Source: an uncultured Chromatiales bacterium (GTDB taxonomy: Bacteria > Bacteroidota > Ignavibacteria > SZUA-365 > CAYQST01). From it: a stretch of DNA of 64,000 nucleotides. Made by a program: the position numbers and the translations under genes. Below the pieces are notes generated by a model. That model saw nothing but the letters and a program-made list of their open reading frames with translations. It did no database searches and was not told the DNA's origin. Position 1 is the stretch's first letter. Each line of letters opens with the position of its first letter. The DNA is taken from positions 100,804-164,803 of the forward strand of contig CAYQST010000004.1 in the NCBI GenBank assembly GCA_964420295.1. The letters are read 5' to 3'. Positions 1,186-31,791 of this stretch are shown here, piece by piece.

Positions 1186-1590
1186 TCAGTCAAGGTATTC
1201 GAGGTAATACTCATGAACCGTATGACCTTCATCGTCTTCATATGACGAGTTTAATGTGGGTCCATTAATACAGATCGAAAGTTTGATTCTTCCTACACCG
1301 TGATTTCCCGGGTCGACAACAACTTTCCCATTCCCATCAGCTTCGATGCATGTAATGGTCGGATTGTGCTCACACCCAACAAAGAGTGATTTCCCCTCAG
1401 ACGTCACACCGATGGACACATACGTCGCACGACCCGCGACAACGATCGCAATTGGCGCGAGGTTTGACTGCATGTCGTGATGCAAGATGACAGCTGGGAT
1501 GAGTTCGATCGGTGACGTTGCATACAACGTCGGACTGAATTGCCCTATAAGAAGGAATAGGGCGATGACAATTGGCAGAGTCCTCATCAT
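1186..1590 (-). CDS. small secreted hypothetical protein
   Basis: ORF 1186..1623(-); internal start MMRTLPIVIALFLLIGQFSPTLYA is a signal peptide; no recognisable family. Confidence 0.35.
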   Translation of the reverse strand: MMRTLPIVIALFLLIGQFSPTLYATSPIELIPAVILHHDMQSNLAPIAIVVAGRATYVSIGVTSEGKSLFVGCEHNPTITCIEADGNGKVVVDPGNHGVGRIKLSICINGPTLNSSYEDDEGHTVHEYYLEYLD

Positions 1591-1671
1591 AGCACCTGGA
1601 AATGTGAATAATGACGACGCCAATTTGATAAAAAAAAAAAGAATAAATACAAGTCATTATTCTAGTACCAT

Positions 1672-2940
1672 CTACCACCCCGCCTCCACTACCAGTCCGA
1701 TCTGGTGGATGTGATAGTCGTGATACTCATTGTTGCTTTCGTTGCGCCAATAGGTGTAGGTGCCGCCGACGGACAAATGGAAGCCGCGCCCAGCGGGAAG
1801 GATCGGATACATCACCTGTGCGGAGACACTCCAGCGACGATCCTTCCGCTTCGGATCTCCCGGAAGGGTGAGGCCGTCCATATCGGTGGCGACGCGGGGA
1901 TAGCGCTTCCAATAGGCGAGAGCCGACACCGTGGCGGTGAGGGGACCGAAGAGGGGACCAGTCGCTGTGAGGTCGAGTTCATCGGATTCATATCCATAGC
2001 GATCGTCGAACACGTCGTCCTCGTTGCCGTAATCCAAATCCTCGCGATCGAGATAGCGCGCCTTCGATTCGGGATTGATCCGCTTCGTCCAGGCCAGACT
2101 CCCCGTCCAGGATCCGCCGGGTTGAAGCGACAGTCCCGCGACGAGCGAGAGCTGCTGCGTGGCAGGGGCCTCCCAGGTGGTGATCACTTCCTGCCAGTAC
2201 ACACGCCGCCCTTCCCGTACTTCCACCCAGGTGGTGTCGGTTTTGGATTCCGTGTATTCCTTGTACCCAAACATTCCTCCGGCAAACACCTCCACGGGCT
2301 CCGCCACCCGGGCGCTCAGCACCAGTCCCCCGTTGAACTCCCAATGCGTGAACAGATTCAGAAACGGATACGCCTTGTATTCCGCGTCCGCCACGAGCCG
2401 CGCCATCACGGGACCCGCGACGTGCCGACGAAGGGTCGCTCCCACGCCCCCCATCCGATAATCATAGAACATCCATCGGCTCCGATCGTACCGCGCGCCC
2501 ACATAGGGCTTCACCACCAGATAGGTAAGAAGACTGTCCGCCGCGATTCCCGCATCCCTCTTCACCCCTTCACTCTTTACTCCTTCACGCTCCTCTTCTT
2601 CCTCATCCTCATCCTCGTGTTCTTCCTCGTCCTCCTTCCCGTCCAGCTGCATCTGCAAGAAAGCGCCCGCCAGATGCTGATGATAGGTGCGGTCGGCCAC
2701 CCGTTGGAATTGCACCCAGGCCCCGTAGTAGAAGAGCTGCGTGAAGCTGTAGTCCGTTTCGATGTCGTAGGACAGGGATCCGAAGATCTGATGATACACA
2801 TCGGGCTTCTTGACACGATAGGCGAAGGAATTGTCGTCGTACACACTCAGAGTCTGCACTCCTCCCGCCCATTGCGCGTGAAGAGGTGAGCACAGGAGCA
2901 GGATCATCACGGACCAACGAGGAATGAAGGACAGGCGCAT
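1672..2940 (-). CDS. outer-membrane beta-barrel protein (putative EPS export porin) with acidic low-complexity insert
   Basis: Start MRLSFIPRWSVMILLLCSPLHAQ (signal peptide) overlaps GT stop by 1 nt (TAATG); alternating amphipathic strands, C-terminal ...VVEAGW aromatic terminus typical of OMP barrels; DGKEDEEEHEDEDEEEEERE acidic run. Confidence 0.6.
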   Translation of the reverse strand: MRLSFIPRWSVMILLLCSPLHAQWAGGVQTLSVYDDNSFAYRVKKPDVYHQIFGSLSYDIETDYSFTQLFYYGAWVQFQRVADRTYHQHLAGAFLQMQLDGKEDEEEHEDEDEEEEEREGVKSEGVKRDAGIAADSLLTYLVVKPYVGARYDRSRWMFYDYRMGGVGATLRRHVAGPVMARLVADAEYKAYPFLNLFTHWEFNGGLVLSARVAEPVEVFAGGMFGYKEYTESKTDTTWVEVREGRRVYWQEVITTWEAPATQQLSLVAGLSLQPGGSWTGSLAWTKRINPESKARYLDREDLDYGNEDDVFDDRYGYESDELDLTATGPLFGPLTATVSALAYWKRYPRVATDMDGLTLPGDPKRKDRRWSVSAQVMYPILPAGRGFHLSVGGTYTYWRNESNNEYHDYHIHQIGLVVEAGW

Positions 2941-4217
2941 TATTGCGGACTCCCGTGCGTAGGGGTGAAGCGAACCGTTTTGGCCCAGGTCTGTTTTTCC
3001 TTCTTGATGTTGTCCAGCCAGAATGCGCGGGCCACTACGAAGATCCAAAGCTGACAATAGGTGAGGTACATCAGGGCAATAAGCGCGAGAGCGGAGAAGG
3101 AGTCCTCGCGATCGTAGGAGAGCGCGAGAAAGATCTCCGCGAAGAATAAGAGAATGGCAAACACCCAGACAAGAGTGTAGGGACCGGGCAGCGCGATGGA
3201 TACGAGGTTCATCGCGGAGACGAGGAAGAGCAGGTCGCTGATGAGGATGGCAACAAAGAAAATGTAATACAGAGCCAAACTGTAGGCCACTTCGAATCGA
3301 AGCTTGAAGCCGGGGATCTGCTTCATCATGCGGAAGAACTTGCGTGAGACATAGTTATTTCCCCGTACCCAACGGGTGCGCTGTTTCAGCCACACCGCCC
3401 AGGTCTCCGGCTCCTGTTCCCACGTCACCGCGTAGGGAATGGTTTTGATCTTCCAGCCATGAATGTACATGCGGATGCTAAACTCCGAATCCTCGGTGAT
3501 CGCCTCCTCATCCCAGCCTCCCAGATCCGCGATGATGGATTTGCGGATCACATAATTCGTCCCCGGCAGGGTGGCGATGCTCAGCAGCTTCCAGCGTCCC
3601 GCCTGAAGGATGGATTGAAAACTCAGGGTCTCGATGTTGATGAAGCGGGTCAGCAGGGTCCGCCGCTTGTTGATCGTACGGAACTTACCCAGCACCGCGC
3701 CCAGCTCCGGATGCAGCAGAAGCTGCGCCACGAGATAACGCAGGGCTGCGGGCTCGGGGGTGTTGTCCGCATCGTAGATCGCCAGAATCTCGTGACGGGC
3801 GATGCCGATGCCAAGATTGAGGGCGCGGGACTTCCCCTTCCCGCCCTGTCCCGCAGGCACATCGTACAGGATCACGCGGGGATCCCGGGCGGCCCGCTCG
3901 AGAATGATCTCGCGGGTGCGATCGGTGCTGCCGTCGTTGATGACGATGATCTCGAGCCGATCGTGGGGATAGTCCAGCGCACACATCGCGTCGATGGTGT
4001 CGCCAATCACCACATCCTCGTTATGCGCGGGAATGAGAATCGATACGGGTGGAAAATCAAGATCCATGCCATCCACCGCTCGTTGTTCCTTCCGCGAGGA
4101 TTGATAATGGAAAAATCCCGCCACCGTGAGGATGAGCTGCCAGCCGATCATGAACCAGATGAGGATGACGGCGATGACGAAGAGAATGCTGAGATCGAGT
4201 TCAAGAAACGGGGACAC
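2940..4217 (-). CDS. family-2 processive beta-glycosyltransferase (PgaC/IcaA/cellulose-synthase-like polysaccharide synthase)
   Basis: ILIPAHNED..., YDADN (DxD), TEDSEF, QRTRWVRG (QxxRW) motifs plus N- and C-terminal TM helices; start uncertain (GTG at 4217 preceded by GGAGG; ORF-track ATG at 4307 would overlap upstream gene by 107 nt; ATG at 4151 also possible). Confidence 0.85.
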   Translation of the reverse strand: MSPFLELDLSILFVIAVILIWFMIGWQLILTVAGFFHYQSSRKEQRAVDGMDLDFPPVSILIPAHNEDVVIGDTIDAMCALDYPHDRLEIIVINDGSTDRTREIILERAARDPRVILYDVPAGQGGKGKSRALNLGIGIARHEILAIYDADNTPEPAALRYLVAQLLLHPELGAVLGKFRTINKRRTLLTRFINIETLSFQSILQAGRWKLLSIATLPGTNYVIRKSIIADLGGWDEEAITEDSEFSIRMYIHGWKIKTIPYAVTWEQEPETWAVWLKQRTRWVRGNNYVSRKFFRMMKQIPGFKLRFEVAYSLALYYIFFVAILISDLLFLVSAMNLVSIALPGPYTLVWVFAILLFFAEIFLALSYDREDSFSALALIALMYLTYCQLWIFVVARAFWLDNIKKEKQTWAKTVRFTPTHGSPQ

Positions 4218-7200
4218 GGGAGCCTCCACTCGCACGAAGAGCCGGGCGACGCTGAATGCGAATGATGATATAAAACACCAGGAGCGCGATGCAGGCCAGG
4301 AGGCCAAAAAGCACGATGGCGGTGGAAGACCAGAGACTGGTCAGGTTGATGCCGTACCAGACGGCGCCCTGGGTCACCAAATGAACATGATGCCGACCGG
4401 GAGGCAACATCAGACTGTATCGCCCCGAGCCCTTCATCGGCACACAGGCCTGCTCCCGTCCATCAATATACAGGGCTTCGGGCCGCTTGTTCAGCGTGAT
4501 CAGACAGCGCGTGTCGCTCTCGTAGCCGAAGTCCACACTCCGCACGCTGCCACGCTCATACAGCAGATTGCCGCTGATCGACAACAGGGTGGCGCGCAGC
4601 TCATCGGCGGAAAACACGCCGCTGATGTCGGGATGGGTGTTGATGGTGTGGGATCCCGCCGGAATCAGAAAACGCCCGTCCCCGGCGGACATGAAAATCT
4701 CCCCATCCACCGTCACGGCGCGATGATCACTGTCGAGCGTGAGCGTGAAGGACGTGGGCGAGGACACGGACATGCGGGTACCGGAGCGGGTGACCTGCAC
4801 GGGACTCGCCGACGCATAGCTCATCAGACTCAGGTCCTGGGGATTGATGCTCGATTCCGCATACGTGATCACGCGCGGTGCCACCCGGCTGGTGACGGCC
4901 TGGAGCATGAAGGCCTCGGTGCCGGTCTGTACCAGGGTCGGGAAGAGCGTGGGCTTCTCGGGTGTACGGAAGGAGAGGATGTTGACGTCGAGAGCCAGGT
5001 CCTTGCCCAACAAGGCCGCGTAGCGGGTCGCGATGGACTCGTAGCGGCGGGGATCCTCGCTCCAGCGGGACAGGGGATCTTCGACGTTCAGCACAAAGGG
5101 ACGAAGAGCACGCAACGAGAGAACCGCTTCGATGTCAATACCGTGATTGCGGCGCAGTTCGGGACTGTGCAGGTTGTCCAACGCCGTCACGACAAGATCG
5201 AAACCGGGGCGCTTCTTCGAGAAGGGCAACAGCATACGCAGAAGGCGTTCATGCATGTGCGTCATGAACTCGACGCGGTAGTCCTCAAATTTCTTCCATG
5301 CCGCGACATCCCGCTTCCAGAAGAGGGGTGAGGAGGGATCGAGCAGGGACACAGGATCAAAGCCAGCCCTCCGCTTCATATCCGCCCGAGCGGACGGGTG
5401 CATGGGCGTGAGGAGGTTCGGTTCGTCGGGCCCTCCCACGCCGCTTTCGAAGTAGACTTCTCCGATATTCACTCCATCGAAGTCGTGCTTCTCGAACAGG
5501 TCGCGGTACTTGTCCACCATCGCGTTCACGCAGGCCGGATCCGTCATCGCCATGGGGTAGCGCCACGAGGGACGCACGTCCTGCCCGAGTCTGTTCTTCT
5601 CCCTCCATTCCGGATGCTCGATCCAGAATTTTTGGGACACCTGTGGCGGCTCGATCCACCCATACACGAGGATGCCATTGGCATGGCAGAGCTCGATCAG
5701 CTTGTCGTAGTCGTAGGTGTACTTGGGATACTCGTGCCAGGTGGCCACGTGGATGGCGCGAATGCCCACCGAGGTCCACATCTTCACCAAGTCCTCGACA
5801 CTGATGGTATTGCGATATCCAGGATCGAAGTACAGTTCGAGATTGTCTCGTCGAACGACGGGAAACACCTTGAAGTACTTGGTCATGTAATGCGCGAGAT
5901 AGGGAAAGCGACTGTATCCGGCGTCGGAGACGGGATCGAAGCGGCAGCCGAAGTAGAGAATCTTTCCCTTCTCGAAGGTACGCCCCACCACCACGGGGGC
6001 GCCAGATTCTTCGTCCGTGGCAAAGATCTCGTCGTCGTCCTGGGCCTCGAATTTGATGAGGGGTTCAGGAATCCGCCAGGCGATCATTTCATCTGGAAAG
6101 AGACGATCCCGCAGTCGGGACACCGGTGTCGTGGTGCCGGTCGAGACGACGCCGAATTCCTTCGAAAGTTCCGTCTTCGCGTCGAGAATGCAGTTCCCGC
6201 CGTTTCGCACCCATTCCACCAGACGACTCATCATCAGATCATTCATCACTTCGACAGAGCCATACGGAGCGACGATCAGGTTGTAGGAGCCGCAGGAAAA
6301 AGAGGAGCGGGCGGGCAGGGTATCCACCGGAATGTTTAGCCAGCGGAAGGCATTCAAAAAGCTGCGTTGATCCAGCATCGCTCCCCCGTGGGCCTTTTCG
6401 TCCCAGAGCAGCCCTACCCGGGCCTCGGCGCGGAGGGTTCGCTTCTCCGTCATCGACGAAAAGGCCGTGGAGATATCCTTCCACAAATTCTCGAAGAAAC
6501 CGGTGGAGTGCTCGCGCAGCTCCGTGGGCTGGGCCACATACAGACTTCCGTCGGAAAGCTGCACCTTTCGCGTGATGCTCCCTCGAATGCGCTCGGGGAG
6601 GATCTGCGTGTGTCCCACACTTCCGTCTCGCTGAATCCAGGATTCCTGAAGAAACTGATCCGCGAGGGAAAGGGTGACCTCTCCCTTGCCCGTTACGATC
6701 GCGCGGTTCGGGAGTCTCACGATGTTGATATCGTTCTTCACATCCACATAGGTGAAGCCCCGCTCCTTGATGCCGCGCACCAGTCGTTTCAGGTTCTCCA
6801 GCGGCACGAAGGAATGATAGAAGCAGCTCGCCCATCCGTCGCGGGTCTGCACCACCGTGCTCGCATATTTCAGGATGTTGGTCACCTGATCGACGGAGAT
6901 CTGGGGATCGTCGGGATCGAAGGGAATGTAGCCGAGGTTTTCGGGATAGATCTTCTGTCCGAAATTGTCGCGGTAAATGAGGTACGGGAAATACTGACTG
7001 TAATCGGCGTTGTCGATGGCCAGGCGCTGTTCCATCGCGGTGGAGAAGATCGAGGCCGCCGCAGCATAGGCGGTTTGCGAGCCCGTGTAGTGCGGGGTCT
7101 CCCAGAGCACGGGATAGATGCCGTTCCGCATGCACTCCTCCACGCCGGCCAGAATTTTGTCGCGATCTCCGCCCAGGGTTTCCTCCTTGATCGGTCCGCT

Positions 7201-8151
7201 TCGACTCACATCCCAAAATTCAAAGTCCGCCGCCGTCACGCCCTTGTATTGATGGGTGCTGCCATGCATGGCCACCGTCCCGCCTTTGCTCACCATGTAA
7301 TGAATGGCATCGACCAGATCCGGCTTGTCCGACAGACTGATACGCTCGTTCCGTGTGGGATCGACATAGAAAGGAATGAGGGTGATGATGAAGGGCACGC
7401 CTTCGTCATACAGCACGTCGGCCACATCACGCAGACGATCGGGGTCCTCGAGGGGATGCACGTCCTCGATGCGAAGGAGAGCCTTGTGCGACACGGGATG
7501 GTATTCTCCCAGCACGTCGTGCAGCAGATCCGCGAAGAGCAGGTAGCGATCGCTTTCTGTCGCATAGGCAAAGGGATTGTCGGCCACGTACCAGAAGTTA
7601 CCTGAGCGCAGAACATAGGGCGAGGAAGCGCGCTTTGCCTGGGCCGTGGCGATCACCGCGCATCGGGAGGGATCGGTCACCTTCATCAGCACGAGGTTGG
7701 TCTCTTCCTTCGTGAATACCGCCGAACCTCGTCGAACGGTGTTCCAAGCCGTCACGGTGTCGATACTCAGGGGCAACATCCCGAGCCGGGCGCCCATGGG
7801 AAAGGAGCGCGCCAGGGGCTGAATACCCGTGTACATCCAGAGCAGCGTGGCAGTGCGCTTTCCGACATCCGCCATCAAAGCGGCGGGTGGCTGGAAGTGC
7901 AGGGAATGGCCAATGACACAGGCGACATCGAACTTCTCCATCTGTCCCGCTCGATACTCTTCCGCAGACAGCACCGTGACCGTCGTGCGAAAATGTCCCA
8001 GCAGGGCGGCCATTTGCCGACCGTCACCCCGTGCGGGACTCAGCGCCTGCGGCTTTCCCTCATACACCACCAGCACAGAGCGTGTGGGCTGGGACCAGGC
8101 TGAGCCGATCACCAGCAGAAATAAAAGCGGGAGAGAACGAATCCCGGTCAT
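4201..8151 (-). CDS. secreted multidomain polysaccharide-modifying enzyme: DUF2334/NodB-like deacetylase + GATase1-like + TIM-barrel glycoside-hydrolase-like (GHL) domains, C-terminal TM anchor
   Basis: Signal peptide MTGIRSLPLLFLLVIGSAWSQ; HGSTHQYKG..FEFWD deacetylase-like block; LIVAPYGSVEVMNDLM...NGGNCILD GATase1-like; IRAIHVATWHEYPKY...GILVYGWIEPP..FWIEHPEW GHL TIM-barrel block; C-terminal hydrophobic helix IVLFGLLACIALLVFYIII followed by RRP..; ATGA overlap with upstream gene. Confidence 0.7.
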   Translation of the reverse strand: MTGIRSLPLLFLLVIGSAWSQPTRSVLVVYEGKPQALSPARGDGRQMAALLGHFRTTVTVLSAEEYRAGQMEKFDVACVIGHSLHFQPPAALMADVGKRTATLLWMYTGIQPLARSFPMGARLGMLPLSIDTVTAWNTVRRGSAVFTKEETNLVLMKVTDPSRCAVIATAQAKRASSPYVLRSGNFWYVADNPFAYATESDRYLLFADLLHDVLGEYHPVSHKALLRIEDVHPLEDPDRLRDVADVLYDEGVPFIITLIPFYVDPTRNERISLSDKPDLVDAIHYMVSKGGTVAMHGSTHQYKGVTAADFEFWDVSRSGPIKEETLGGDRDKILAGVEECMRNGIYPVLWETPHYTGSQTAYAAAASIFSTAMEQRLAIDNADYSQYFPYLIYRDNFGQKIYPENLGYIPFDPDDPQISVDQVTNILKYASTVVQTRDGWASCFYHSFVPLENLKRLVRGIKERGFTYVDVKNDINIVRLPNRAIVTGKGEVTLSLADQFLQESWIQRDGSVGHTQILPERIRGSITRKVQLSDGSLYVAQPTELREHSTGFFENLWKDISTAFSSMTEKRTLRAEARVGLLWDEKAHGGAMLDQRSFLNAFRWLNIPVDTLPARSSFSCGSYNLIVAPYGSVEVMNDLMMSRLVEWVRNGGNCILDAKTELSKEFGVVSTGTTTPVSRLRDRLFPDEMIAWRIPEPLIKFEAQDDDEIFATDEESGAPVVVGRTFEKGKILYFGCRFDPVSDAGYSRFPYLAHYMTKYFKVFPVVRRDNLELYFDPGYRNTISVEDLVKMWTSVGIRAIHVATWHEYPKYTYDYDKLIELCHANGILVYGWIEPPQVSQKFWIEHPEWREKNRLGQDVRPSWRYPMAMTDPACVNAMVDKYRDLFEKHDFDGVNIGEVYFESGVGGPDEPNLLTPMHPSARADMKRRAGFDPVSLLDPSSPLFWKRDVAAWKKFEDYRVEFMTHMHERLLRMLLPFSKKRPGFDLVVTALDNLHSPELRRNHGIDIEAVLSLRALRPFVLNVEDPLSRWSEDPRRYESIATRYAALLGKDLALDVNILSFRTPEKPTLFPTLVQTGTEAFMLQAVTSRVAPRVITYAESSINPQDLSLMSYASASPVQVTRSGTRMSVSSPTSFTLTLDSDHRAVTVDGEIFMSAGDGRFLIPAGSHTINTHPDISGVFSADELRATLLSISGNLLYERGSVRSVDFGYESDTRCLITLNKRPEALYIDGREQACVPMKGSGRYSLMLPPGRHHVHLVTQGAVWYGINLTSLWSSTAIVLFGLLACIALLVFYIIIRIQRRPALRASGGSRVPVS

Positions 8152-10550
8152 TGCACGATCACCATTTTCGTGATGCGATGAGATCCTGTCTGAAGGTGCA
8201 GAAAGTAGGTGCCCGAAGATGGAAAAACCGTGCGGGGCAGCGCAAGCCAGCCTTCACGATCGGAGGCAGCGAGAAGGGTCGAAAGATCGGCCAGACGAAT
8301 GCCGCGAAGGTCATGCAGAAACAGGTGAACGGCCTCGCGATCCTCCTCACTCCATCGCACGCGAAGCATCACATCTCCGTGACTGGGATTGGGTGTCACG
8401 TCGAGTGAAGACGGCTGGAAAGGAAGGCTGGCGTCGGAAAGAACGAGAAGGGGAGAGAGGGTTTCCGTGCCATCATAGTCTCGCTGGATGAGACGGTAGG
8501 TGAGCTCGCGGCGGGACGCATCCTCGCGCGTATCAGAAAATGCGTAATGGCGTGGCTCGACGCTGGTGCCCGCACCAGGCAGGAACCCGCGCTCTCTCCA
8601 TTCGTCCCCGTCCAGACGCTGAATCCTGAATCCGGCGTTCCCGGTCTCCGAGGCGGTGGACCAGCGCAGGTGTACGACGCGGCCATCGATCTGTCCGGAA
8701 AAGGCCTGTAGTTCCACCGGCGTGGGATAGGACTGGGAACTGAGCGTCATTCCAAAGTCCCCCACCGCCACCACGCGACCGGCGCTGCTCGACACCCCGT
8801 ACAGCGCGTACTGCGCATAGCTCAGCTCCTTCGTCCAGGTATATCCCCAGTCGTCGCTTCGAAGAATGCTGCCATTGTCCCCCACCGCACAGAGGGTGCC
8901 GGGGATCGTGGCGGTCATATTGTACAGCGCCGATGAGGTGGGTGGCGTCTGCGTGTCCCAGGTGACTCCGTAATCGGTGGAGATGAGCACCGCACCCGCG
9001 TCTCCCACGATCGTACCCATGGCACCTGCCGTGAATACACCAAAGAGCGCGTCCTGGGTGTAACTCTGCTGGGGATACCAGTTCTGACCGCCGTTCACGG
9101 TAATGATGATCGTGCCGTTCGCACCCACCACGGTTCCGACCTGAGGATCCTCGAAATGCATGGCGTAGAGGGATTGCGAGGTTCCGGTGGCGCAGGCGAT
9201 CCATGAGCCGCCTCCGTTCGTGGTGCGGAGCACCGTGCCTCCCACGCCCGCAGCGAATCCGACGAGAGGAGAGATGAAGCGAATCGTGTTGAGGGTCATC
9301 GTCGTGCCACTGGGCTGGGCGCTCCAGTTCATGCCTCCGTTGGCACTGTACAGAATCGTACCGCCCGCGCCGCATACCCACACGTTGTTCGCGTCCGTGG
9401 CCGAGGCCCCGTAGAGATTCTGCGTCGTACCCGACACCTGGGGCGACCAGGATGCTCCACCATTGGCGCTGGCGAGAATGTCCCCATTGTCCCCCACCGC
9501 CCAGATCATGCCAGCGCCAAAGTTTGTCACCCCGTTCAGCGTCGTGCGGGATCCCGTGGTGATAGCGGTAAATGTGCCCGGCAGTGCAGCGGTATAAATT
9601 CCTCCAAATACCCCGACGGCCACGACGGTGGTTCCGGACGAGGCCAGCCCTTCGAGTCCATTCGTCGCGCCGGACGCGAAGGGGACCCAGATTTGGCCTC
9701 CATTCGTGGTGAAGAGCACGGTGCCCAATTCGCCCACGGTCACGCCGGTATTGAGGTCGAGAAAGCGAACCTTGTTGAGATCCGTGGTGGTATTGGTGGT
9801 TTGCCGCGTCCACTGAGCGCCGCCATTGGTGGTGCACAGAATGGTGCCGTTCGTGCCCGCCGCCCAGCCGTTCTGCGCATCCACGAAGAACACCCCGATC
9901 AGATCGAAGAGACCCGGACCCGGGATCGTGATGCTTGTCCACGTCTGCCCACCATTGGTGGTTTTTCGGATTGTTTTGGATGCACCCACGGCCCAGCCAT
10001 TCTGGGCGTCGACAAAGAAGATATCGTTCAGATTGTTGGTCGTGTTGCTGGTCTGCGCCGACCACAGGGCTCCCCCGTTGGTCGTGTGTCGAACCATCCC
10101 CGCATCGCCCACCACCCAGGCTTCGGAAGACGAAATGGCGAAGATCTCGTTGATCCCCAATGTCACGCCGGAGGGCTGAGGAGTCCAGGAGAACCCTCCA
10201 TCCTGGGTGAAGAGAATCGTACCATCGTCGCCCACGACCCAGGCGTCCATCGTCGTGGGGGCCGCCAATCCCCGCAGAAAACTCATCGTGCCGCTTGGTC
10301 GATGGCTCCAGGTTTGTCCGCCATTGCCGGACACCAGAATCATGCCTCCCCCTCCCACGGCCCAGCAGGTCGAGGATGCGGGAGAGAACTCTGCGCACCA
10401 CAGGTCGTTGCCCTGGGGCGTGGGATTGTTCCATTGCCACTGTGCGACGGCGAGAGGACCCGAGGCCAGGACCAGAAGGGGCAGGAGGACGAGGAGGAAA
10501 GAGAACGGGCGAAGGGACATGGCTGAGCTGGGGTTGTGGCTTTGCTTCAT
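8148..10550 (-). CDS. BNR/Asp-box (Ycf48-like) beta-propeller protein with T9SS C-terminal sorting domain
   Basis: Signal peptide MKQSHNPSSAMSLRPFSFLLVLLPLLVLA; >12 repeats of TTNGGxxW / S-x-D-x-G-x-T-W; C-terminal ~80 aa match Por_Secre_tail pattern (...GTYFLHLQTGSHRITKMVIVQ); stop overlaps start of 4201..8151 gene (ATGA). Confidence 0.75.
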   Translation of the reverse strand: MKQSHNPSSAMSLRPFSFLLVLLPLLVLASGPLAVAQWQWNNPTPQGNDLWCAEFSPASSTCWAVGGGGMILVSGNGGQTWSHRPSGTMSFLRGLAAPTTMDAWVVGDDGTILFTQDGGFSWTPQPSGVTLGINEIFAISSSEAWVVGDAGMVRHTTNGGALWSAQTSNTTNNLNDIFFVDAQNGWAVGASKTIRKTTNGGQTWTSITIPGPGLFDLIGVFFVDAQNGWAAGTNGTILCTTNGGAQWTRQTTNTTTDLNKVRFLDLNTGVTVGELGTVLFTTNGGQIWVPFASGATNGLEGLASSGTTVVAVGVFGGIYTAALPGTFTAITTGSRTTLNGVTNFGAGMIWAVGDNGDILASANGGASWSPQVSGTTQNLYGASATDANNVWVCGAGGTILYSANGGMNWSAQPSGTTMTLNTIRFISPLVGFAAGVGGTVLRTTNGGGSWIACATGTSQSLYAMHFEDPQVGTVVGANGTIIITVNGGQNWYPQQSYTQDALFGVFTAGAMGTIVGDAGAVLISTDYGVTWDTQTPPTSSALYNMTATIPGTLCAVGDNGSILRSDDWGYTWTKELSYAQYALYGVSSSAGRVVAVGDFGMTLSSQSYPTPVELQAFSGQIDGRVVHLRWSTASETGNAGFRIQRLDGDEWRERGFLPGAGTSVEPRHYAFSDTREDASRRELTYRLIQRDYDGTETLSPLLVLSDASLPFQPSSLDVTPNPSHGDVMLRVRWSEEDREAVHLFLHDLRGIRLADLSTLLAASDREGWLALPRTVFPSSGTYFLHLQTGSHRITKMVIVQ

Positions 10551-10753: not shown

Positions 10754-13306
10754 TCAGAATTCGATTTCCAAACCCGCAATGGGGAAAAACGCCCATTGGT
10801 ACACGGTGTCCCGTGTGCCGTCGTCGTTGTACCGAATGCCCGCGACATTCTTCGTGTTGAGCACGTTTTGCACGGACAGATACAGTGCGAGATTCCAGGA
10901 GGACAGGTTCCAGCGGGACAGCCATGTCAGATCGAGGCGCTGGTAATCCGGATGTCGGGCTCCATTGATATCGCGGGTCCGAACCCAGGTTCCCGTGCCC
11001 CAGGCCAACCCCCCTTCGCGATGCTGTTCGGTGCTCAGATAGGTGCGCGGGGTGTAGGGCGTGCCCGAGGAAAACCGATAGCGGAGTCCGAATTCCATGT
11101 TGTCGGCGAAGGGCAGGAGATAGGAAGGATATCGAACAAACCAGGGCTGGGAGTCAAGAGAGGTTCGCAGTCCATGGACCACGGTGCCGAGCACCACGGT
11201 CAGGATTTGGGGATAGTCGTACGGCGCGGTGTAGTACTCGGATCGTGGGTGGACCCGTGGATCCTTCCATCGCGTCTCGCTGATGCTGTAACTGATCGTA
11301 CCGAAGAAGTCGTCCACCAGTTTTTTCTGTAGAAAAAACTCCACGCCTCGACTCGTGCCTTCTCCGATGCTCAGCGTGCGATCGGATCGGAAGGTGGGAT
11401 CGTCGTCATGCAGAAATTCTTCTGAAACGGGAAGATCGCGAAAGGATTTTTCATAGACCTCCACCGTCGCCTTGAGGCCTCCGTCCATGATGTGCTCGAT
11501 CCCCGCCACGATATGGCGTGCATGGCTGTTGTCGAGATGACGATTCACCCCGGTGTTCCGGCGATCCATGTAGAGTGGATAGGCGAGGGTCTGCGAGTAT
11601 TCTCCATAGGAAATATTCAGGGACGTGGAGGGCAGCACGCGCAGTGAGCCGCTCATGCGGGGACTCACCACGCTCTTTCCTGAATACGTGAAGTGATCGG
11701 CACGGAGGCCGAGCGTGACATGGAGGGCGTCGAACAGGCGGATCCGATCGGACAGGTAGGCACTCAGTTTCTGTTCGTCAAAGGTGGGCAGGGCGAGATC
11801 GATATATCCACCTCTGGTCACGACCTCGCGCTCAAAGTCTCCATTGCCATCGAGATCATAGCGGGCAGTATCGTTGTCCCAGGACGTGGTGGCAAGAAAG
11901 GGCAGATTGAACTTCACCTGGGCTCCGAACGCGATTTCATGTGCGGGATGGGGTGTGGTCACTCCATCGAGCTTGAAGATCCCTTCGGATTGATTGGAGG
12001 CCTCGTCGAATACATGCCGCGCATTCAAGACCTGTGTGTCCGAAACACGGCCATCAGCCGTGAACCGGCGTGCCGTATAGTCCATACGCACATCGGACCA
12101 ATAGCTGTTGCCGATCCCCGCCAACGTCAGCACCGTGTACGTATGCTCGCTCCATAGACTGCGCAGACTCAGCCCTGCCGCATACTGGCGACTGTGAAAA
12201 TCTACCGTGGCCACTCCCACGCTATCCTGCATCCCCGCCTTCTCCATCCGAGTCTCGTCGCTTTCTCCCGCGAAGAGGATGCGATCATCTCCGTAAATGC
12301 CGGAGAACTGGATGCGGTGCACATTCGAGAGATCGTACACCACCTTCCACTGGGCATCCCAATATCGAGGGATTGAGGTGAGCCCGATCGACGAGAGTCC
12401 CACGATCTCGTCGGCCACCTCGAGAAAACTCTTTCGTACCGACACCAGCCAGGATCCACGCTCCTGGGCGAATCCTCCTTCCAGCACCGCCGAAAATCCC
12501 GCCATGTTGAATCCCACGTTGGTGGCGAGCGCTCGGCGTCGATCGCCTTCACGGATGGTAATGTCCATCGCCGAGGACAGCTTGTCTCCATATTGCGCGC
12601 CAAAGCCGCCCGTCGAAAAGGTGATGTCCTCGATGAGGTCCACGTTCACCATGTTGATGGGTCCGCCGGAGTTGAACTCGTTCGGATAGTGATTCGTGGA
12701 GGGGATTTCCACATGATCCATCACGGTGAGGTTTTCGTTTGGCGAGCCACCCCGCACCAGCAATTCGTTGTTGTAGTCGTTGGAACTGGCGACCCCGGGC
12801 AGGATATGCATGATCCGCATCATGTCCATCGCCGATCCCGGAGATCGCTTGATCTCCTCGGCCTGGAGTCCGATGGAACTCACCACGTTGGTGTTTTTTC
12901 CCGAAGAGAAATAATCCGCCTGCACGACGACTCCATTCATGGACACCGCTTCCTCACGAAGAGTGATGGTGACCTGAGCCGGACGTCCCGTGCTGACCAC
13001 GATATCGGTGGTGACCACCGTAGTGTATCCCACGTACGTCGTGCGCAGACTGTATTCCCCAACCGGCACGGAGAATCGAAACCGACCGTCTCCATCCGCC
13101 GTCGTTCCCATTCCTTCTCTCCCCACCACCTGGATCGTGGCGCCTGCCAGAGGGCGACGCGTGGACGCATCGATCACGACGCCGTGAATCAGTCCGGTAT
13201 GAGACTGCGCTTCCGCGACGCACGAAAGCAGAACCAGAATGATGAAACAGAGACCGACAATTCGAACCGAACGGAACTGCGTCGAAGGAAGGAATGAGAT
13301 GCGCAT
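10754..13306 (-). CDS. TonB-dependent receptor (carboxypeptidase-regulatory-like N-domain + plug + beta-barrel)
   Basis: Signal peptide; GVVIDASTRRPLAGATIQVVG...TTADGDGRFRF CarbopepD_reg-like; plug region; long barrel ending ...AGLEIEF (C-terminal Phe). Confidence 0.85.
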   Translation of the reverse strand: MRISFLPSTQFRSVRIVGLCFIILVLLSCVAEAQSHTGLIHGVVIDASTRRPLAGATIQVVGREGMGTTADGDGRFRFSVPVGEYSLRTTYVGYTTVVTTDIVVSTGRPAQVTITLREEAVSMNGVVVQADYFSSGKNTNVVSSIGLQAEEIKRSPGSAMDMMRIMHILPGVASSNDYNNELLVRGGSPNENLTVMDHVEIPSTNHYPNEFNSGGPINMVNVDLIEDITFSTGGFGAQYGDKLSSAMDITIREGDRRRALATNVGFNMAGFSAVLEGGFAQERGSWLVSVRKSFLEVADEIVGLSSIGLTSIPRYWDAQWKVVYDLSNVHRIQFSGIYGDDRILFAGESDETRMEKAGMQDSVGVATVDFHSRQYAAGLSLRSLWSEHTYTVLTLAGIGNSYWSDVRMDYTARRFTADGRVSDTQVLNARHVFDEASNQSEGIFKLDGVTTPHPAHEIAFGAQVKFNLPFLATTSWDNDTARYDLDGNGDFEREVVTRGGYIDLALPTFDEQKLSAYLSDRIRLFDALHVTLGLRADHFTYSGKSVVSPRMSGSLRVLPSTSLNISYGEYSQTLAYPLYMDRRNTGVNRHLDNSHARHIVAGIEHIMDGGLKATVEVYEKSFRDLPVSEEFLHDDDPTFRSDRTLSIGEGTSRGVEFFLQKKLVDDFFGTISYSISETRWKDPRVHPRSEYYTAPYDYPQILTVVLGTVVHGLRTSLDSQPWFVRYPSYLLPFADNMEFGLRYRFSSGTPYTPRTYLSTEQHREGGLAWGTGTWVRTRDINGARHPDYQRLDLTWLSRWNLSSWNLALYLSVQNVLNTKNVAGIRYNDDGTRDTVYQWAFFPIAGLEIEF

Positions 13307-13469: not shown

Positions 13470-16400
13470 CTAGAATGTGGTAAGACCGGGGATGACGATT
13501 TCGTTGGTGGTGGGATTCACCACGGGTTTGCGGGTCCAGCCGGTAGGCAGATTTTGCGAGCCGAAGATTTTAGATTCCGTGCCCACCACGTCGGCGTCCG
13601 TATACCGCAGCGTCACGGTGCAGGAGAAGGCGCTGATGCCACTCTGTCCCAGGGTCCAGTATCTCGTGAGATAATTCGTGAGCGCGGGATTGGAGGGGTG
13701 CTTCTGGTCGGCGAGCCGCAGTCCTGCCTTTGCGGACGAAAAAGTGCCGCTCGCGAAATTCATGGTCACGGGTGTGTACTCGGAGGTGCCATCCTCGTCT
13801 CCCACTGGAAAGGTGAAACTCGCGGGACCAGTGAACGCACGGGTCAGGAAGCCCGAACCCGTCGGGACGATCATAGCCGAGGCCGATGAGGTCGCGGGAA
13901 GAATGATCCCGGCGCCCAGCGCGCAGTCATACGGTCCGAGGCGGAGATTGCCACTCGTAAGTCTCAGGGTATCATTGACGGTGAGTTCTCCGGAGAGCGT
14001 GATTCCGGAGGCGCGGTTGAGAGAGAGACTGCGCAGGGTCACGGTCGGAAGCGTCAGGGCCGTTCCCGTTCCCGCGACAATGAGACGAGCGCTGCTTCCT
14101 CCCACCAGAAGGCCGCTCGTGGCTTCCAGGGTTCCATGCAGGGTGAGGGCGCGGGTCCCCAATGAAAGCGATCCCCCGAGGAGACGCAGTGCCGACGCGA
14201 TGCCCACATCTCCACCGAGAGAGGCGGTGATGCCCACGCTGTTGACAGTGATGCTGTCGTAGCCCATGAAGCCCGGCAGTGTGCCCGAGCTAGTGAGAGT
14301 GCGACTCAGGGTGAATTCATCCGCTCCCATGTCGGGCGCACTCGCGTCCCGGCTCTGCCCATCCGGATCGGGAAGGGTTTCCGGCAGCGGCTGCCCTGCC
14401 CGCGAGCCCTGCGGAACGGGATCGTACCCGCTCCCGGTGGCGATATGCACATCGGTGGAGGACGAAACCAAGGGATCGACATTCAGGGAAAGCCCGTCGG
14501 CACTGCTCGCCGTGCGCCATTGGCTCAGGGTACTGCGAGCCGCGCTATTGATGTACCCAAGGGAGGCGGAAGCCGATCCGGCAGCGACACTGCGCAGGAT
14601 ATTGCTGTTGACGATGTCCGTGGCATAGGAGGTCGCACGGGAATAGTGGGCATAGAATTTGGCCGCGGCAGAGGCGGTGCCGTTCACCTGGAGAATGGAA
14701 TTCCGAAAATCCAGACTATCGGAAAACGTGGTCACAAGGGGATTGCCGTTCGTGAAGGCCGCGACCACGCCCGTGCCCGCACCTAACGTGCCCGTCAGGT
14801 GCACCGTGTTGTGCCAGTACCGATCCTTGTATCCGCCGTTGGCGTTTATCCCCGACAGGAGCATGCTCGTGCTCGTCCCGCTGGACGTCAGATCAGCAAT
14901 GCGCGTCCCCGCCACCAGATTCGACGAGGGAAGAGACGAGGTGGAAAACTGCGTGGTGGAGAGGGTGAGCCCATACACTGGTGTGGTGGACGATCCGGTG
15001 TACGAAATTCCGTGGATGAAGGTATTGAGCACGCGGCAGGCCCGGGCTTCCTGCAGGGACAGTCCGAACACCGATCCTGATCCCGCGCCACGGACTTCCT
15101 GGATCTCGTTTCCGTCCACCAACGCGGTGCGCGGAAAGCGCAGAAGAAGGCCTCCCACTCCAAGTCCGTACCCCCCGGTCGCGCCAATGGCACAGGATCG
15201 GACGATGAGACTATCGTCGGGAAAGGCGGGTGAGCGTCCATGCCAGACCATCCCATGCTGTGCGCTCTGAAACAGCACATTGTCCACCGTCGTGTGACTG
15301 TGCGCGCTCAGCGCCGTGTCCGTCGTCGATACCCCGCTTCCGCCGCCATAGAGAGCCGCAAAGGTGCCCGACACCCCACTGCCGCGCAGGACCAGATTTC
15401 GAATCGTGTTGTGCGTGGCGCCATCGGATGCGGTGGGACTCTGCACGCGAAGCACCGTCGAGGTCGGTGTGGCGGACGTATTCACGAGAGTCAGGTGACG
15501 ACCCGAGAGCCCTGTGGCACTTCCATCGAGATCCACATAGTCGGCGCCCGACAGTCGAAGGATTGCGGTATCGCTGGATGCGGAGAGTGTGATGGTGGTG
15601 GCCGAGTCCGGAGCGATGCGCAGTCGGGCATCGGCTCCCGCACCGGCGAGGGCGGAAATGGTAACGGGCAGAGCATCTTCCTCGGTCACCGAATAGCTGG
15701 ACGTAAGGAGTAGGGACGTGGGGCCCTGGAGTTCCTTGGTGGCGAGATCGGCCAGGGCCGCCGTGAGATCCACAAACTGACATCCGGCGCTCGGAGTGGT
15801 GCCGGTTCCACCAATGCGATAATTGCCTGCGGCAAAAGTCGGAACCGCAGCCACGAGCAGAGGGCGCAGGCGAAGGTCGTTGGCATAGGACGCCCATGAC
15901 GCACCGGATTTGGTGTTGGAACGACCATCGGGGCTCCCATTATCCACGCTGAACGAGGTCGTCGACCCCGCAGTGAAATAGGCCACCAGATGATACACCG
16001 TTCCCGAAGCGAGAGTGAGCCCCGTTCCGGTGAGGGACACGGCATTCCAACTGAAGGGAAGAACGTCGGCACGGGCGATGGACACGCTCGACCCCAGTTT
16101 GGCCAGGGGCTTGCCGCTCCCATTGTCGGACCAGATCTCGAAGATCAGAGAGCCGGTGAATCCCACCGTGCTGCCGAGATGGAAATAGGCGGTGGCGGGT
16201 CTTGCGGTCCAGGTGGGTGTGAAGCGAACCGCGATCAGGGTCCCCGCACTCACGGACAGTGTATTGTCGGATTTCCACTGATCCACCGCGTGGAGGGCCG
16301 TGCTTGAGGGAAGGGAAATTCCGGTGAGGACCCGCATGGCGCGATAGACATTGAGTTTGCCGTAACCCCAGTGGTTCGAAGGAAGAGAGGCGCGGGTCAT

Positions 16401-18230
16401 GGTATCCGTCGTGGCGGTGGCTTGCAGCAGGTCCCGGATGTCGGTGCCCGAGAGAAGGGGATTGCGCTGCAGGAGCAATGCGGCGGCTCCGCAGGTGACG
16501 GGACTGGCCATGCTCGTGCCCTGGGTCAGGCGTTGCTTCCCATTCCCCATTAATTCACTCGCGGACACACCGATGGTGGAGGAACTGGTCGAGACGATCC
16601 CTTGTCCCGGTGCGGCCAGATCGGGCTTGATCGCGCCGGTGCGCGTGGGACCCTTGCTACTGAAGGACGAGAGGGAGTCGGAATTGTCGGACGTGGTGCT
16701 GTAGAGCCAATTGCTTCCGTTGCTCGAGGTCCATCGCCACCGGCTCACCCAGGACCCCGCCACCACGGCCGTGGCGGCCGTGTTGTTGACCGTGGACGTT
16801 TGATCTCCTCCGGACAGCGTAATGGTTTTCGCGGGATTGCCGATGCTCCAGTCCCAGAGCCAGCAATGCCAGGTGGAGGCGCTGCCCGAGGCGTTGGAAA
16901 GGAACACCTTCCACACTCCTGCCGCGGGTGGTTTCGCGGTGGTGGAATCGTACCAGTACGCATAGTGCTGGACGTCCCCATTCCCGGGGTCCGTGCCGTT
17001 GTACAAATAGAGCGTCCCGCTGTTGTTGGTTGTCGACAGATCGAAGTTCGCACGGCATCGCACCGTATCATTCAGAGGGGACACCACGGAAAAGGAGAGG
17101 TTCCCCGACCCGTCGTGCCAGAGATCGATGCCGAAGGCATCATTGCCCGCACCGCTCAACGGGGTGTAGGCAGGCACGGTGATCAGCAGGGAATCGGTTC
17201 CTCCCGTGGGAAGAGTGCGGGACAGGTGGATGGGACTCCCTCCGCTGTTGCCCGCCGCCATGGCTACCACGCGTCCTGTTCCGGAAAAGGCATCCACTCC
17301 CACGCTCATCGCATCGGTACCGTCGTGGGGTCCGTCGTTCGAGCCCAGACTGATGTTGACGGCGATGGGGCGACCCAGGGCCGTGGCCTTGGCGCGCAGC
17401 CAGGTCAGGCCATCCACGATGTCGCTGGTGTACATGCTGGTCTTCACGAACAGGATGTCCGCTTCCGGCGCCATGCCCTGGTAGCGGCGATTCGGGAGGG
17501 ATTGTCCGTTCCCGGCCGCGATACCGGCCACGTGCGTACCATGCCCGTTGACGTCGTTGCTGCGCACGAATCCCGCGGGACTTCCATCCAGCTCGTTGTT
17601 CAGGTGCGTCTGCGAATACTCCACGCCATAGGCGAATCCGGAAGGAGAGGATTCTCCGCTCCCCGGCGTCAGGGTCTGATCCCAGATCGCCACCACGCGG
17701 CTTTTCGTGGAATCGGACAAGGACCGGAAATCCAGATGCTTCCAGTCGATCCCCGAATCGATGACACCCACCAATACTCCTTTCCCTTTGTACTCAGTGC
17801 GATTGATCATCCCTGCGTGGAGCAGATCTGCGCCGGTGAGGGATCTCGCGAGGTCGTTGAGATAGTCCATGCGTCCCGACGCCTTCACCATGCGGATGCC
17901 TGGTACCGCGATCACGTCCAGGAGCTGGCGCGAGGTGAGACGGGCCGTGCAGAAGCCGGGGAGGATGGAGTGAATGGCCCAGTCCAGTGATGGAAGCGCC
18001 TCGGGATGATCGCAATACACGATCACCGCGTACATCGGTTCTCCGTTGGCATCGAGGCCCGCGATCTCGGGGAGGGGAGCACCGGAGCGAATCCCTCGGT
18101 CAGGAAGGTCACGAGCCACTGCGGCACGCAAACGCGGATCGAGGTGGGAGAGCGCCTCGCGTGGATCAGGATTCTGCGCATGCAGAATCGAGACGACGAG
18201 GAACGGAAGCAGAAGGATCAGGCGTTTCAT
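13470..18230 (-). CDS. giant secreted subtilisin-family (S8) serine peptidase
   Basis: Signal peptide MKRLILLLPFLVVSILHAQ; catalytic triad contexts GVIDSGID, HGTHVAGIAAG, GTSMASPVTCGAAALL; ~1300 aa of C-terminal beta-rich repeats. Confidence 0.85.
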   Translation of the reverse strand: MKRLILLLPFLVVSILHAQNPDPREALSHLDPRLRAAVARDLPDRGIRSGAPLPEIAGLDANGEPMYAVIVYCDHPEALPSLDWAIHSILPGFCTARLTSRQLLDVIAVPGIRMVKASGRMDYLNDLARSLTGADLLHAGMINRTEYKGKGVLVGVIDSGIDWKHLDFRSLSDSTKSRVVAIWDQTLTPGSGESSPSGFAYGVEYSQTHLNNELDGSPAGFVRSNDVNGHGTHVAGIAAGNGQSLPNRRYQGMAPEADILFVKTSMYTSDIVDGLTWLRAKATALGRPIAVNISLGSNDGPHDGTDAMSVGVDAFSGTGRVVAMAAGNSGGSPIHLSRTLPTGGTDSLLITVPAYTPLSGAGNDAFGIDLWHDGSGNLSFSVVSPLNDTVRCRANFDLSTTNNSGTLYLYNGTDPGNGDVQHYAYWYDSTTAKPPAAGVWKVFLSNASGSASTWHCWLWDWSIGNPAKTITLSGGDQTSTVNNTAATAVVAGSWVSRWRWTSSNGSNWLYSTTSDNSDSLSSFSSKGPTRTGAIKPDLAAPGQGIVSTSSSTIGVSASELMGNGKQRLTQGTSMASPVTCGAAALLLQRNPLLSGTDIRDLLQATATTDTMTRASLPSNHWGYGKLNVYRAMRVLTGISLPSSTALHAVDQWKSDNTLSVSAGTLIAVRFTPTWTARPATAYFHLGSTVGFTGSLIFEIWSDNGSGKPLAKLGSSVSIARADVLPFSWNAVSLTGTGLTLASGTVYHLVAYFTAGSTTSFSVDNGSPDGRSNTKSGASWASYANDLRLRPLLVAAVPTFAAGNYRIGGTGTTPSAGCQFVDLTAALADLATKELQGPTSLLLTSSYSVTEEDALPVTISALAGAGADARLRIAPDSATTITLSASSDTAILRLSGADYVDLDGSATGLSGRHLTLVNTSATPTSTVLRVQSPTASDGATHNTIRNLVLRGSGVSGTFAALYGGGSGVSTTDTALSAHSHTTVDNVLFQSAQHGMVWHGRSPAFPDDSLIVRSCAIGATGGYGLGVGGLLLRFPRTALVDGNEIQEVRGAGSGSVFGLSLQEARACRVLNTFIHGISYTGSSTTPVYGLTLSTTQFSTSSLPSSNLVAGTRIADLTSSGTSTSMLLSGINANGGYKDRYWHNTVHLTGTLGAGTGVVAAFTNGNPLVTTFSDSLDFRNSILQVNGTASAAAKFYAHYSRATSYATDIVNSNILRSVAAGSASASLGYINSAARSTLSQWRTASSADGLSLNVDPLVSSSTDVHIATGSGYDPVPQGSRAGQPLPETLPDPDGQSRDASAPDMGADEFTLSRTLTSSGTLPGFMGYDSITVNSVGITASLGGDVGIASALRLLGGSLSLGTRALTLHGTLEATSGLLVGGSSARLIVAGTGTALTLPTVTLRSLSLNRASGITLSGELTVNDTLRLTSGNLRLGPYDCALGAGIILPATSSASAMIVPTGSGFLTRAFTGPASFTFPVGDEDGTSEYTPVTMNFASGTFSSAKAGLRLADQKHPSNPALTNYLTRYWTLGQSGISAFSCTVTLRYTDADVVGTESKIFGSQNLPTGWTRKPVVNPTTNEIVIPGLTTF

Positions 18231-31747: not shown

Positions 31748-31791
31748 GATACACCGCGATATTGAAAAAAAAGAGGAAGTAATCCGAAATA

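Follow-up and report, generated by a model that had tools for sequence, protein, structure and literature searches.

Four consecutive open reading frames (ORFs) on the minus strand, chained to one another by overlaps of their start and stop codons, occupy positions 1672-10550 of the stretch of DNA analysed here (contig CAYQST010000004.1; the whole stretch of 64 kb is referred to as the window) and together probably encode a synthase-dependent exopolysaccharide (EPS) system. In the order of transcription they are a gene for an 800-residue BNR/Ycf48-like beta-propeller protein (BNR; 8148..10550, minus strand, residues counted from the ATG preceding the signal peptide), a gene for a multidomain periplasmic protein of 1316 residues (BIG; 4201..8151, minus strand), a gene for a 425-residue membrane-embedded processive glycosyltransferase of family 2, predicted to be of the PssC/YdaM type (GT2; 2940..4217, minus strand), and a gene for a 422-residue secreted protein of an orphan family, a putative outer-membrane beta-barrel (OMP, for outer-membrane protein; 1672..2940, minus strand).

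The stop codon of the BNR gene and the start codon of the BIG gene have the ATGA at 8151-8148 in common. Between the last two genes, the TAATG at 2942-2938 holds the TAA stop of GT2 (2942-2940) and the ATG of the OMP gene (2940-2938), which share one base. The GT2 ORF opens upstream of the end of BIG at 4201; its best start is the GTG at 4217, located 5 nt 3' of a GGAGG (4227-4223) and fitting the N-termini of orthologous GT2 proteins, which gives an overlap of 17 nt with BIG (other in-frame starts are found at 4229, 4235 and 4307). The four minus-strand ORFs and their three junctions are all present as described in an earlier reading of this DNA, made from the letters alone (the original prediction). 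Relatives were sought in one genome of each GTDB species by pattern matching combined with tblastn; 514 genomes encode a relative, and the best 80 of these 514 loci, all of them full-length and from metagenome-assembled genomes (MAGs), were studied with genes called by tblastn and iterated HMM searches. Overlaps of 1-4 nt are repeated in the orthologous loci, between BNR and BIG in L001 and L004 and between BIG and GT2 in L002, and the coupling is therefore conserved and not a matter of chance.

Relationship of the synthase to known systems

The GT2 protein displays the residues D95, D149-A-D151, T240-E-D242 and Q279-R-T-R-W283, with hydrophobic segments at residues 1-37 and 308-397 as judged by hydropathy. 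Matches to membrane GT2 families were obtained in Pfam at 1e-32, and the PDB sequences matched were BcsA cellulose synthases (1e-17) and chondroitin synthase. Motifs, hydrophobic segments and BcsA matches agree with the earlier designation of this protein as a processive synthase with a D,D,D,QxxRW signature, and the generic hallmarks of synthase-dependent EPS production, i.e., a processive GT2 of the inner membrane that has a membrane channel and the motifs D, DxD, (T)ED and QxxRW, can be recognised in it.

The closest characterised relative of the window GT2 is PssC of Listeria innocua, to which it is 45% identical over 412 aligned residues, that is, over its full length (E=2e-129, 367 bits). 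The bit score is about three times that of E. coli PgaC (31% identity over 290 residues, 127 bits), and the match to E. coli NfrB is marginal (32% over 126 residues, E=4e-4, 32 bits). On the basis of these 367, 127 and 32 bits, the enzyme is predicted to be a processive synthase of the PssC/YdaM type and not of the PgaC type.

The best NCBIfam model of the GT2 is PgaC_IcaA (TIGR03937; E=1e-52, full length), which could be taken to indicate a divergent pga/ica-like system for poly-N-acetylglucosamine (PNAG), with the GT2 as PgaC/IcaA and BIG as PgaB (deacetylase plus GH153). We regard such an assignment as quite unlikely. With 179.5 bits, the GT2 stays below the cutoff of this model (422.3 bits), it is far closer to PssC than to PgaC, and homologues of PgaD and PgaA are absent from the window and from the 80 loci; for PgaD, tblastn gave no match in the window or in 87 related loci searched, where no conserved small ORF was found either. 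Moreover, BIG is without sequence or profile similarity to PgaB, and the wecB gene placed beside the cluster in 36 relatives would be superfluous, since PNAG uses UDP-GlcNAc directly. The PgaC_IcaA threshold, PgaD/IcaD and PgaA all place the cluster outside the Pga/Ica group.

A tblastn search of BIG against plasmid records led to a Listeria innocua record with a pss operon, which encodes DUF2334, GT2, BcsB-like and GGDEF-like proteins. PssC is the key GT2 and proven EPS synthase of the Listeria Pss system, in which PssD is BcsB-like (PMC4125290), and the Pss EPS is a chain of beta-1,4-linked N-acetylmannosamine (ManNAc) with alpha-1,6-Gal, as summarised in PMC5422440. In addition to the similarity of the synthases, the gene of the DUF2334 protein is positioned immediately upstream of the GT2 gene in both systems, and related loci of the present cluster carry wecB, a gene for the supply of UDP-ManNAc. 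Unlike in Listeria, however, neither the BcsB-like PssD nor the degenerate-GGDEF receptor PssE occurs here. The CE4 metal and catalytic motifs, lost from Listeria PssB, are retained in the DUF2334 domain of BIG, to which about 850 residues of extra domains are fused, among them a glycoside hydrolase (GH)-like TIM barrel and the C-terminal anchor. As expected for a diderm, the present cluster also encodes a putative outer-membrane protein and a propeller directed to the type IX secretion system (T9SS). The Listeria innocua PssB itself (L091:7506-9005) is devoid of the His-x3-His and E-D motifs and looks like a pseudo-deacetylase.

Similarity to the Bacillus subtilis ydaJKLMN operon is seen in the naming of several BIG homologues as 'uncharacterized protein YdaL' by JGI and in the pairing of a GT2 (YdaM) with a DUF2334 protein (YdaL) that is required for EPS (PMC13274460, PMC5422440); ydaLMN are the genes required for the Bacillus EPS (PMC13274460). 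The present cluster differs by the absence of the YdaK cyclic di-GMP (c-di-GMP) receptor and of the BcsB-like protein (YdaN, taken here to be the equivalent of PssD), and the link to B. subtilis Yda runs via Listeria PssC/PssB and the JGI name. Among the components that mark the Pss/Yda group, the GT2 and the DUF2334 protein are therefore found in the cluster, whereas the BcsB-like protein and the c-di-GMP receptor are not.

Other systems resemble the cluster in single aspects. Among annotated proteins, the one most closely related to the N-terminal domains of BIG (31.5% identity for BIG residues 23-470) belongs to an nfr-like cluster of Ralstonia solanacearum (L088:3133-11465, megaplasmid CP047137.1). 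This cluster is composed of an nfrB-like glycosyltransferase, an nfrA-like outer-membrane protein, wecB, a 105-residue hypothetical protein, the 578-residue DUF2334 protein and a 299-residue hypothetical protein, and it was encountered in 136 Ralstonia megaplasmid records; from its composition, a YdaL-like deacetylase can also be taken up into Nfr-type systems. WecB is needed by the NfrB system, for which a ManNAc-based polymer has been proposed (PMC8669472). The window GT2, marginally similar to NfrB, is without the C-terminal c-di-GMP-binding domain of the latter, and no homologue of NfrA or YbcH, the further components of the E. coli N4 glycan receptor, is present at this locus. PelA of the Pel system and Agd3 of fungal galactosaminogalactan differ in domain order and families, and polymerisation in the Pel system is carried out by a cytosolic GT4 with the partners PelD/E/G, all of which are missing from the cluster.

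In the light of these comparisons, two claims of the original prediction had to be given up. The statement that the component architectures match no described system is refuted by the 45% identity of the GT2 to PssC and by the DUF2334/YdaL family membership of the N-terminal third of BIG. The same PssC match and DUF2334 partner replace the picture of an unrelated new system with pga/pel/ica-like logic by that of a diderm relative of Pss/YdaJKLMN. The overall architecture of the cluster is undescribed, with the GT2/DUF2334 pair being the components known from Pss/Yda; in the literature searched, essentially nothing was found on DUF2334 and nothing describing this cluster architecture.

Domain organisation of the 1316-residue protein

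In BIG, Pfam detects only DUF2334 (residues 223-460, 1.9e-47) and part of the GH42 trimerisation domain, and no further match was obtained in NCBIfam or PDB sequence searches. The 659 database homologues are of near-constant length (~1310-1340 residues). The protein was modelled with AlphaFold as two halves from 28-sequence alignments, and both half-models reached a pLDDT of ~87 and a pTM of ~0.85. Behind an N-terminal signal peptide, the models suggest a succession of seven domains, all encoded on the minus strand. A flavodoxin-like domain of the GATase1/ThuA-like type (residues ~24-215; 7507..8082) precedes the DUF2334 domain, which is predicted to adopt the barrel of CE4-type polysaccharide deacetylases (~223-470; 6742..7485), and a beta-sandwich recognised from the secondary structure of the model (~476-545; 6517..6726). 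Next come another flavodoxin-like domain, this one of the GH42 trimerisation-domain type (~579-735; 5947..6417), a (beta/alpha)8 glycoside-hydrolase-like barrel (~765-1115; 4807..5859) and two further beta-sandwiches (~1119-1260; 4372..4797; strands 559-700 in the model of the C-half). The chain ends with a transmembrane helix at residues 1270-1302 (4246..4344, minus strand; hydropathy 3.15, a long helix in the model) and a basic tail, RIQRRP. This helix is the sole strong hydrophobic helix of BIG, and a W-S-S...F-G motif in its region is kept in the homologues. Given the signal peptide and the lone C-terminal helix, the bulk of BIG is predicted to be periplasmic, with the helix as its tether to the inner membrane.

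The CE4 motifs of BIG read R-I-E229-D230-V, H296-G-x-T-H300-Q-Y, W-E-T-P-H354-Y, R-D438-G and F-x-H446. Their signature positions are invariant in the 28 homologues, and the motifs are common to BIG, the Ralstonia DUF2334 protein and a 'polysaccharide deacetylase' of B. thuringiensis. All elements of a CE4-type enzyme, namely the distorted (beta/alpha) barrel, the Asp-His-His metal site and the catalytic base and acid motifs, are found in domain 2, and the predicted site, with its metal ligands and putative catalytic base and acid, is apparently intact. The direct match of BIG to Listeria PssB is weak (28% over 124 residues, 2e-11).

In comparisons of the model, the TIM barrel is closest in fold to the C-domain of PgaB, and domain 5 is confirmed by the model as a glycoside-hydrolase-like TIM barrel at the level of fold only. 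The original prediction of a giant secreted protein with a deacetylase-like domain and a GH-like TIM barrel, as in PgaB/PelA, was correct at this same level, with the DUF2334 match and the AlphaFold models in support. With its CE4-type and GH-like modules in a single periplasmic protein, BIG is reminiscent of PgaB of E. coli and Bordetella (CE4 deacetylase plus GH153 domain). Nevertheless, PgaB is a 672-residue outer-membrane lipoprotein, while BIG has 1316 residues, two flavodoxin-like and three beta-sandwich domains and a predicted inner-membrane anchor in its C-terminal helix; the partner GT2 is not of the PgaC type, and PgaA and PgaD are absent. The GH-like TIM barrel could supply the activity of the dedicated hydrolase PssZ/YdaJ.

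The possibility that the C-half of BIG is a fused YdaN/PssD, i.e., a BcsB-like subunit, was considered and rejected, as BLASTP and hhalign against Listeria PssD gave nothing and the fold is that of a GH-like TIM barrel. The C-half found no match in the plasmid records. Stand-alone homologues of it exist, many of ~700 residues, with the flavodoxin-like domain, TIM barrel and beta-sandwiches and without DUF2334; one of them (P0153, L086:8001-10181) adjoins the gene of an M28-like peptidase and not a GT2. A 1675-residue variant of BIG with ~350 extra N-terminal residues (weak GHL6 match) is encoded at L087:8001-17592, where it is followed by a GT2, a 289-residue unknown protein, a PQQ-type propeller with a T9SS tail that replaces BNR, and a UDP-GlcNAc 2-epimerase.

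Conservation of the cluster and its putative outer-membrane components

The taxa of the 80 loci are Ignavibacteriota, Bacteroidota and Acidobacteriota/Thermoanaerobaculaceae, together with a few implausible labels. Neighbours were counted in the 46 loci flanked on both sides by 6 kb of sequence or more. GT2 lies directly downstream of BIG in every related locus where the sequence continues (46 of 46). A BNR gene borders the cluster in 26 of the 46 loci and an OMP gene occurs in 22, with both of them in 20; wecB is found in 18. Three architectures predominate: wecB-BIG-GT2-OMP-BNR in Ignavibacteriales, BNR-BNR-BIG-GT2-OMP in the clade of the window (L001, L004, L006, L009-L015), and BIG-GT2 alone in Acidobacteriota and others, the last amounting to 24 of the 80 loci. 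The minimal conserved unit is therefore composed of two genes, BIG and GT2, and not of four. Synteny of the four genes in related genomes, proposed as a check by the original prediction, accordingly holds throughout for the BIG/GT2 core and in part for OMP and BNR.

By targeted tblastn, wecB was located directly upstream of BIG in 36 of the 80 loci (L007, L008, L012, L016, L018, L030-L032 and L037-L043 among them), at a distance of ~100-400 nt, e.g. L038:6592-7692. The genes correspond to the non-hydrolysing UDP-GlcNAc 2-epimerase equivalog (TIGR00236, 459-495 bits against a cutoff of 210). No gene family other than wecB, BIG, GT2, OMP and BNR recurs in at least 10 of the 80 loci. Homologues of PssD, PssE, PgaA, PgaD, NfrA and YbcH were detected by tblastn neither in the window nor in any related locus; no conserved TPR protein, c-di-GMP-binding co-polymerase or c-di-GMP receptor was found across the 80 loci, and scans of the cluster proteins and of ten further large ORFs of the window revealed neither a GGDEF nor a PilZ domain. 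The original prediction was right in noting that PgaA, PgaD, a TPR porin and a c-di-GMP receptor are missing at this locus, and they are missing from the 80 related ones too.

Several of the MAGs (L006, L007, L012, L013, L015, L069, L071) go under the labels Chromatiales, Syntrophobacter, Bacillota or Syntrophomonadaceae. In identity to the window BIG (44-56%), their loci fall into the same range as the Ignavibacteriota/Bacteroidota loci, and L006, L013 and L015 have the gene order of the window clade. These labels look unreliable.

A periplasmic or envelope-bound glycan or oligosaccharide, similar to osmoregulated glucans or chitooligosaccharides and with BIG acting mainly as a hydrolase or transglycosylase, could account for the many lineages that keep BIG-GT2 only, for the inner-membrane tether of BIG and for its stand-alone C-half homologues outside a GT2 context; NodC and MdoH are also among the weaker NCBIfam matches of the GT2. 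Such a product is nonetheless very improbable. The GT2 is collinear over its full length with PssC, a proven EPS synthase (PMC4125290), OMP and a surface-targeted propeller are co-encoded in ~40% of the loci, and deacetylase-plus-hydrolase pairs are a hallmark of secreted adhesive polymers (PMC6307706).

The OMP has a signal peptide ending in AQ, no further hydrophobic helices and a tryptophan, i.e. an aromatic residue, as its C-terminal residue; these features agree with the original prediction, in which the last gene encodes an outer-membrane beta-barrel that could be the export porin, as far as a signal-peptide protein with an outer-membrane-type C-terminus follows the GT2. In 20 orthologues the motif R-N-x-S-N-x-x-Y-x-D-...-G-I-G-F/W is situated at the extreme C-terminus, and a C-terminal motif of this kind is typical of BAM-assembled barrels. 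An acidic, low-complexity insert of poly-Glu/Asp is located at residues ~105-125 (window 2560-2640). Its length is very variable between orthologues, from ~20 to more than 150 residues (window, L001, L004, L014, L030), and a conserved G-K-G-K-G loop lies beyond it. A database search with the single sequence returned 3 matches only, probably owing to this insert, whereas a trimmed profile retrieved 88 clusters, all 'hypothetical' and from MAGs of Ignavibacteria and Bacteroidota. Isolated weak matches to SlipAM (0.0014) and DUF2490 (0.032) were each seen in one member of the family only. Homologues are encoded in 34 related loci, mostly directly after GT2. From its position, signal peptide and C-terminal motif we infer a role as porin, which would make it a new candidate porin family.

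The BNR protein consists of an N-terminal hydrophobic segment serving as signal peptide (residues 1-37), ~640 residues of propeller repeats and a C-terminal sorting-like domain. Pfam matches are PSII_BNR (1.9e-47), Sortilin-Vps10 and BNR, and solved Ycf48 structures match at 1e-24 over one of two apparent propellers. Residues 718-800 (8151..8399, minus strand) resemble the T9SS type-A sorting domain TIGR04183, the whole profile being covered with E=1.8e-4 and 21.4 bits, which is below the cutoff of 23; orthologues score 23.5 (L006), 37.5 (L038) and 37.7 bits (L043). The family is most likely T9SS cargo, as judged from these tails, and the window copy most likely too. In the original prediction the protein was a Ycf48-like BNR propeller with a T9SS sorting domain, of which the propeller and the T9SS-cargo family stand, with the tail of the window copy falling short of the cutoff.

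An arrangement in which BIG and GT2 alone form the polysaccharide machine, with OMP and BNR as a separate surface module (T9SS cargo with its outer-membrane partner or anchor) that exports no polymer, is unlikely. It would be in line with the tracking of BNR by OMP (20 of the 22 OMP loci also have BNR), with the loci in which BIG-GT2 stand alone, with the dissimilarity of OMP to any known EPS porin, with the shifts of BNR genes in position and strand relative to the core, and with the presence of a second BNR/sortilin protein in the window at 21280-25161. In the loci examined, however, the OMP family was seen only beside BIG-GT2, mostly on the same strand directly after GT2 (in the window with the overlap of 1 nt), none of the loci offers another conserved candidate for passage of the outer membrane, and all four genes are tightly coupled in translation in the window and its clade. 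The second BNR/Sortilin-Vps10 protein (1293 residues, 21280-25161, plus strand) is unlinked to the cluster; it scores 172.8 bits against an F510_1955-like cutoff of 175 and has a weak T9SS tail (18 bits).

Upstream of the BNR gene, the putative head of the transcript, a gap of 203 bp separates the cluster from the gene of a CarboxypepD_reg-Plug-TonB-dependent receptor (10754-13306) on the same strand; no consensus promoter was recognised in this gap, the promoter/terminator scan giving no more sites than in shuffled sequence. A 1606-residue S8 subtilase (13470-18290, minus strand) lies further upstream. On the other side, a 145-residue ORF with a signal-peptide-like N-terminus (1186-1623, minus strand) starts 48 nt past the last cluster gene; it matches no family and lacks counterparts in the related loci. 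The receptor, the S8 peptidase and the 145-residue ORF were ruled out as cluster members, as they are not conserved neighbours in the relatives. Elsewhere in the window are hutH and hutU for histidine utilisation (30224-33858, minus strand), a secretin-family protein (62212-63696, minus strand) and a response regulator-PP2C (SpoIIE) protein (54298-55491, plus strand); no GGDEF, PilZ or epimerase gene occurs among the larger window ORFs scanned.

Proposed mechanism and implications

Taken together, the cluster is real and conserved, and the synthesis, trimming and export of a sugar polymer is its most likely function. So far it has been encountered only in uncultured Ignavibacteria, Bacteroidota and Acidobacteria. 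It is probably a synthase-dependent EPS system, the counterpart in diderms (Ignavibacteriota, Bacteroidota and Acidobacteriota) of the Firmicute machinery of PssC/YdaM and DUF2334 (PssB/YdaL) proteins. By homology and motifs, the GT2 would polymerise a UDP-sugar at the cytoplasmic face and thread the chain through its own membrane channel. In the periplasm, the CE4-type domain of BIG, with the fold seen in the model, may partly de-N-acetylate the nascent chain, while the TIM barrel similar to the PgaB C-domain may bind or trim it. BIG probably stands in as scaffold for the absent BcsB-like PssD/YdaN, because it is predicted to be membrane-tethered by a C-terminal helix, as BcsB is, and is translationally coupled to the synthase. 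The OMP would provide the exit across the outer membrane, and the T9SS would carry the BNR double propeller to the cell surface, where the propeller could bind, anchor or process the polymer. Since no c-di-GMP receptor is contained in the cluster, control would be transcriptional or exerted from elsewhere in the genome.

The product is probably a polymer of N-acetylhexosamine, and most likely one based on ManNAc, because PssC makes a beta-1,4-ManNAc backbone and wecB stands upstream of BIG in the relatives described above. The nfr-like cluster of Ralstonia, with the nearest annotated relative of the N-terminal domains, also points to a ManNAc-containing polymer. The identity of the sugar is the weakest link of the proposal.

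A number of observations weigh against this interpretation of the cluster as a Pss/Yda-like system with its own export route. An identity of 45% to PssC does not fix sugar specificity, and wecB is found neither within 8-10 kb of the cluster in the closest clade (L001, L004, L006, L009-L015) nor in the 64-kb window, so that for this clade ManNAc is extrapolated from others. OMP and BNR are missing from the vicinity in about half of the related loci; the components for export are thus dispensable, or encoded elsewhere, or not those proposed. The OMP has no match in Pfam, NCBIfam or PDB profile searches and no similarity to the known porins PgaA (hhalign probability 0.4%) and NfrA, and its 15 beta-amphipathic segments compare with 14.2 +/- 3.1 in shuffled controls. 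With regard to BIG, the likeness of the TIM barrel to GH153 is just slightly above that to GH42 or Cwp19, and neither PgaB, by sequence or profile, nor the BcsB-like PssD shows similarity to it. Finally, all relatives are from MAGs.

Synthase-dependent exopolysaccharides such as cellulose, PNAG, Pel, alginate and Pss underlie biofilm formation, and to our knowledge they are understood almost entirely from Proteobacteria and Firmicutes. Overall, the cluster is not categorically new and is best described as a member of the Pss/Yda lineage of synthase-dependent EPS systems, adapted to the diderm envelope. More tentatively, and somewhat short of an even chance, it may represent an undescribed family of EPS systems, widespread in uncultured Ignavibacteriota, Bacteroidota and Acidobacteriota, in which BIG, a single periplasmic enzyme anchored in the inner membrane and uniting deacetylase, hydrolase and scaffold domains, takes the place of the BcsB-like co-subunit as well as of the separate modification enzymes, a new OMP porin and a T9SS propeller form the outer and extracellular end, and no dedicated c-di-GMP receptor is employed.

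The cluster would extend the Pss/Yda lineage to diderm phyla that are dominant in sediments, soils and bioreactors and are seldom cultured, and its wide distribution in uncultured phyla adds to its interest. The DUF2334 deacetylase, which appears catalytically intact, gives this domain of unknown function an activity that can be tested, and the OMP is a candidate new porin family. That two proteins make up the minimal conserved machine sets limits to models of the scaffolding of such synthases in the absence of BcsB-like or c-di-GMP-binding partners. If the proposed role of the propeller is true, the cluster would be the first functional link of a synthase-dependent EPS pathway with type IX secretion.

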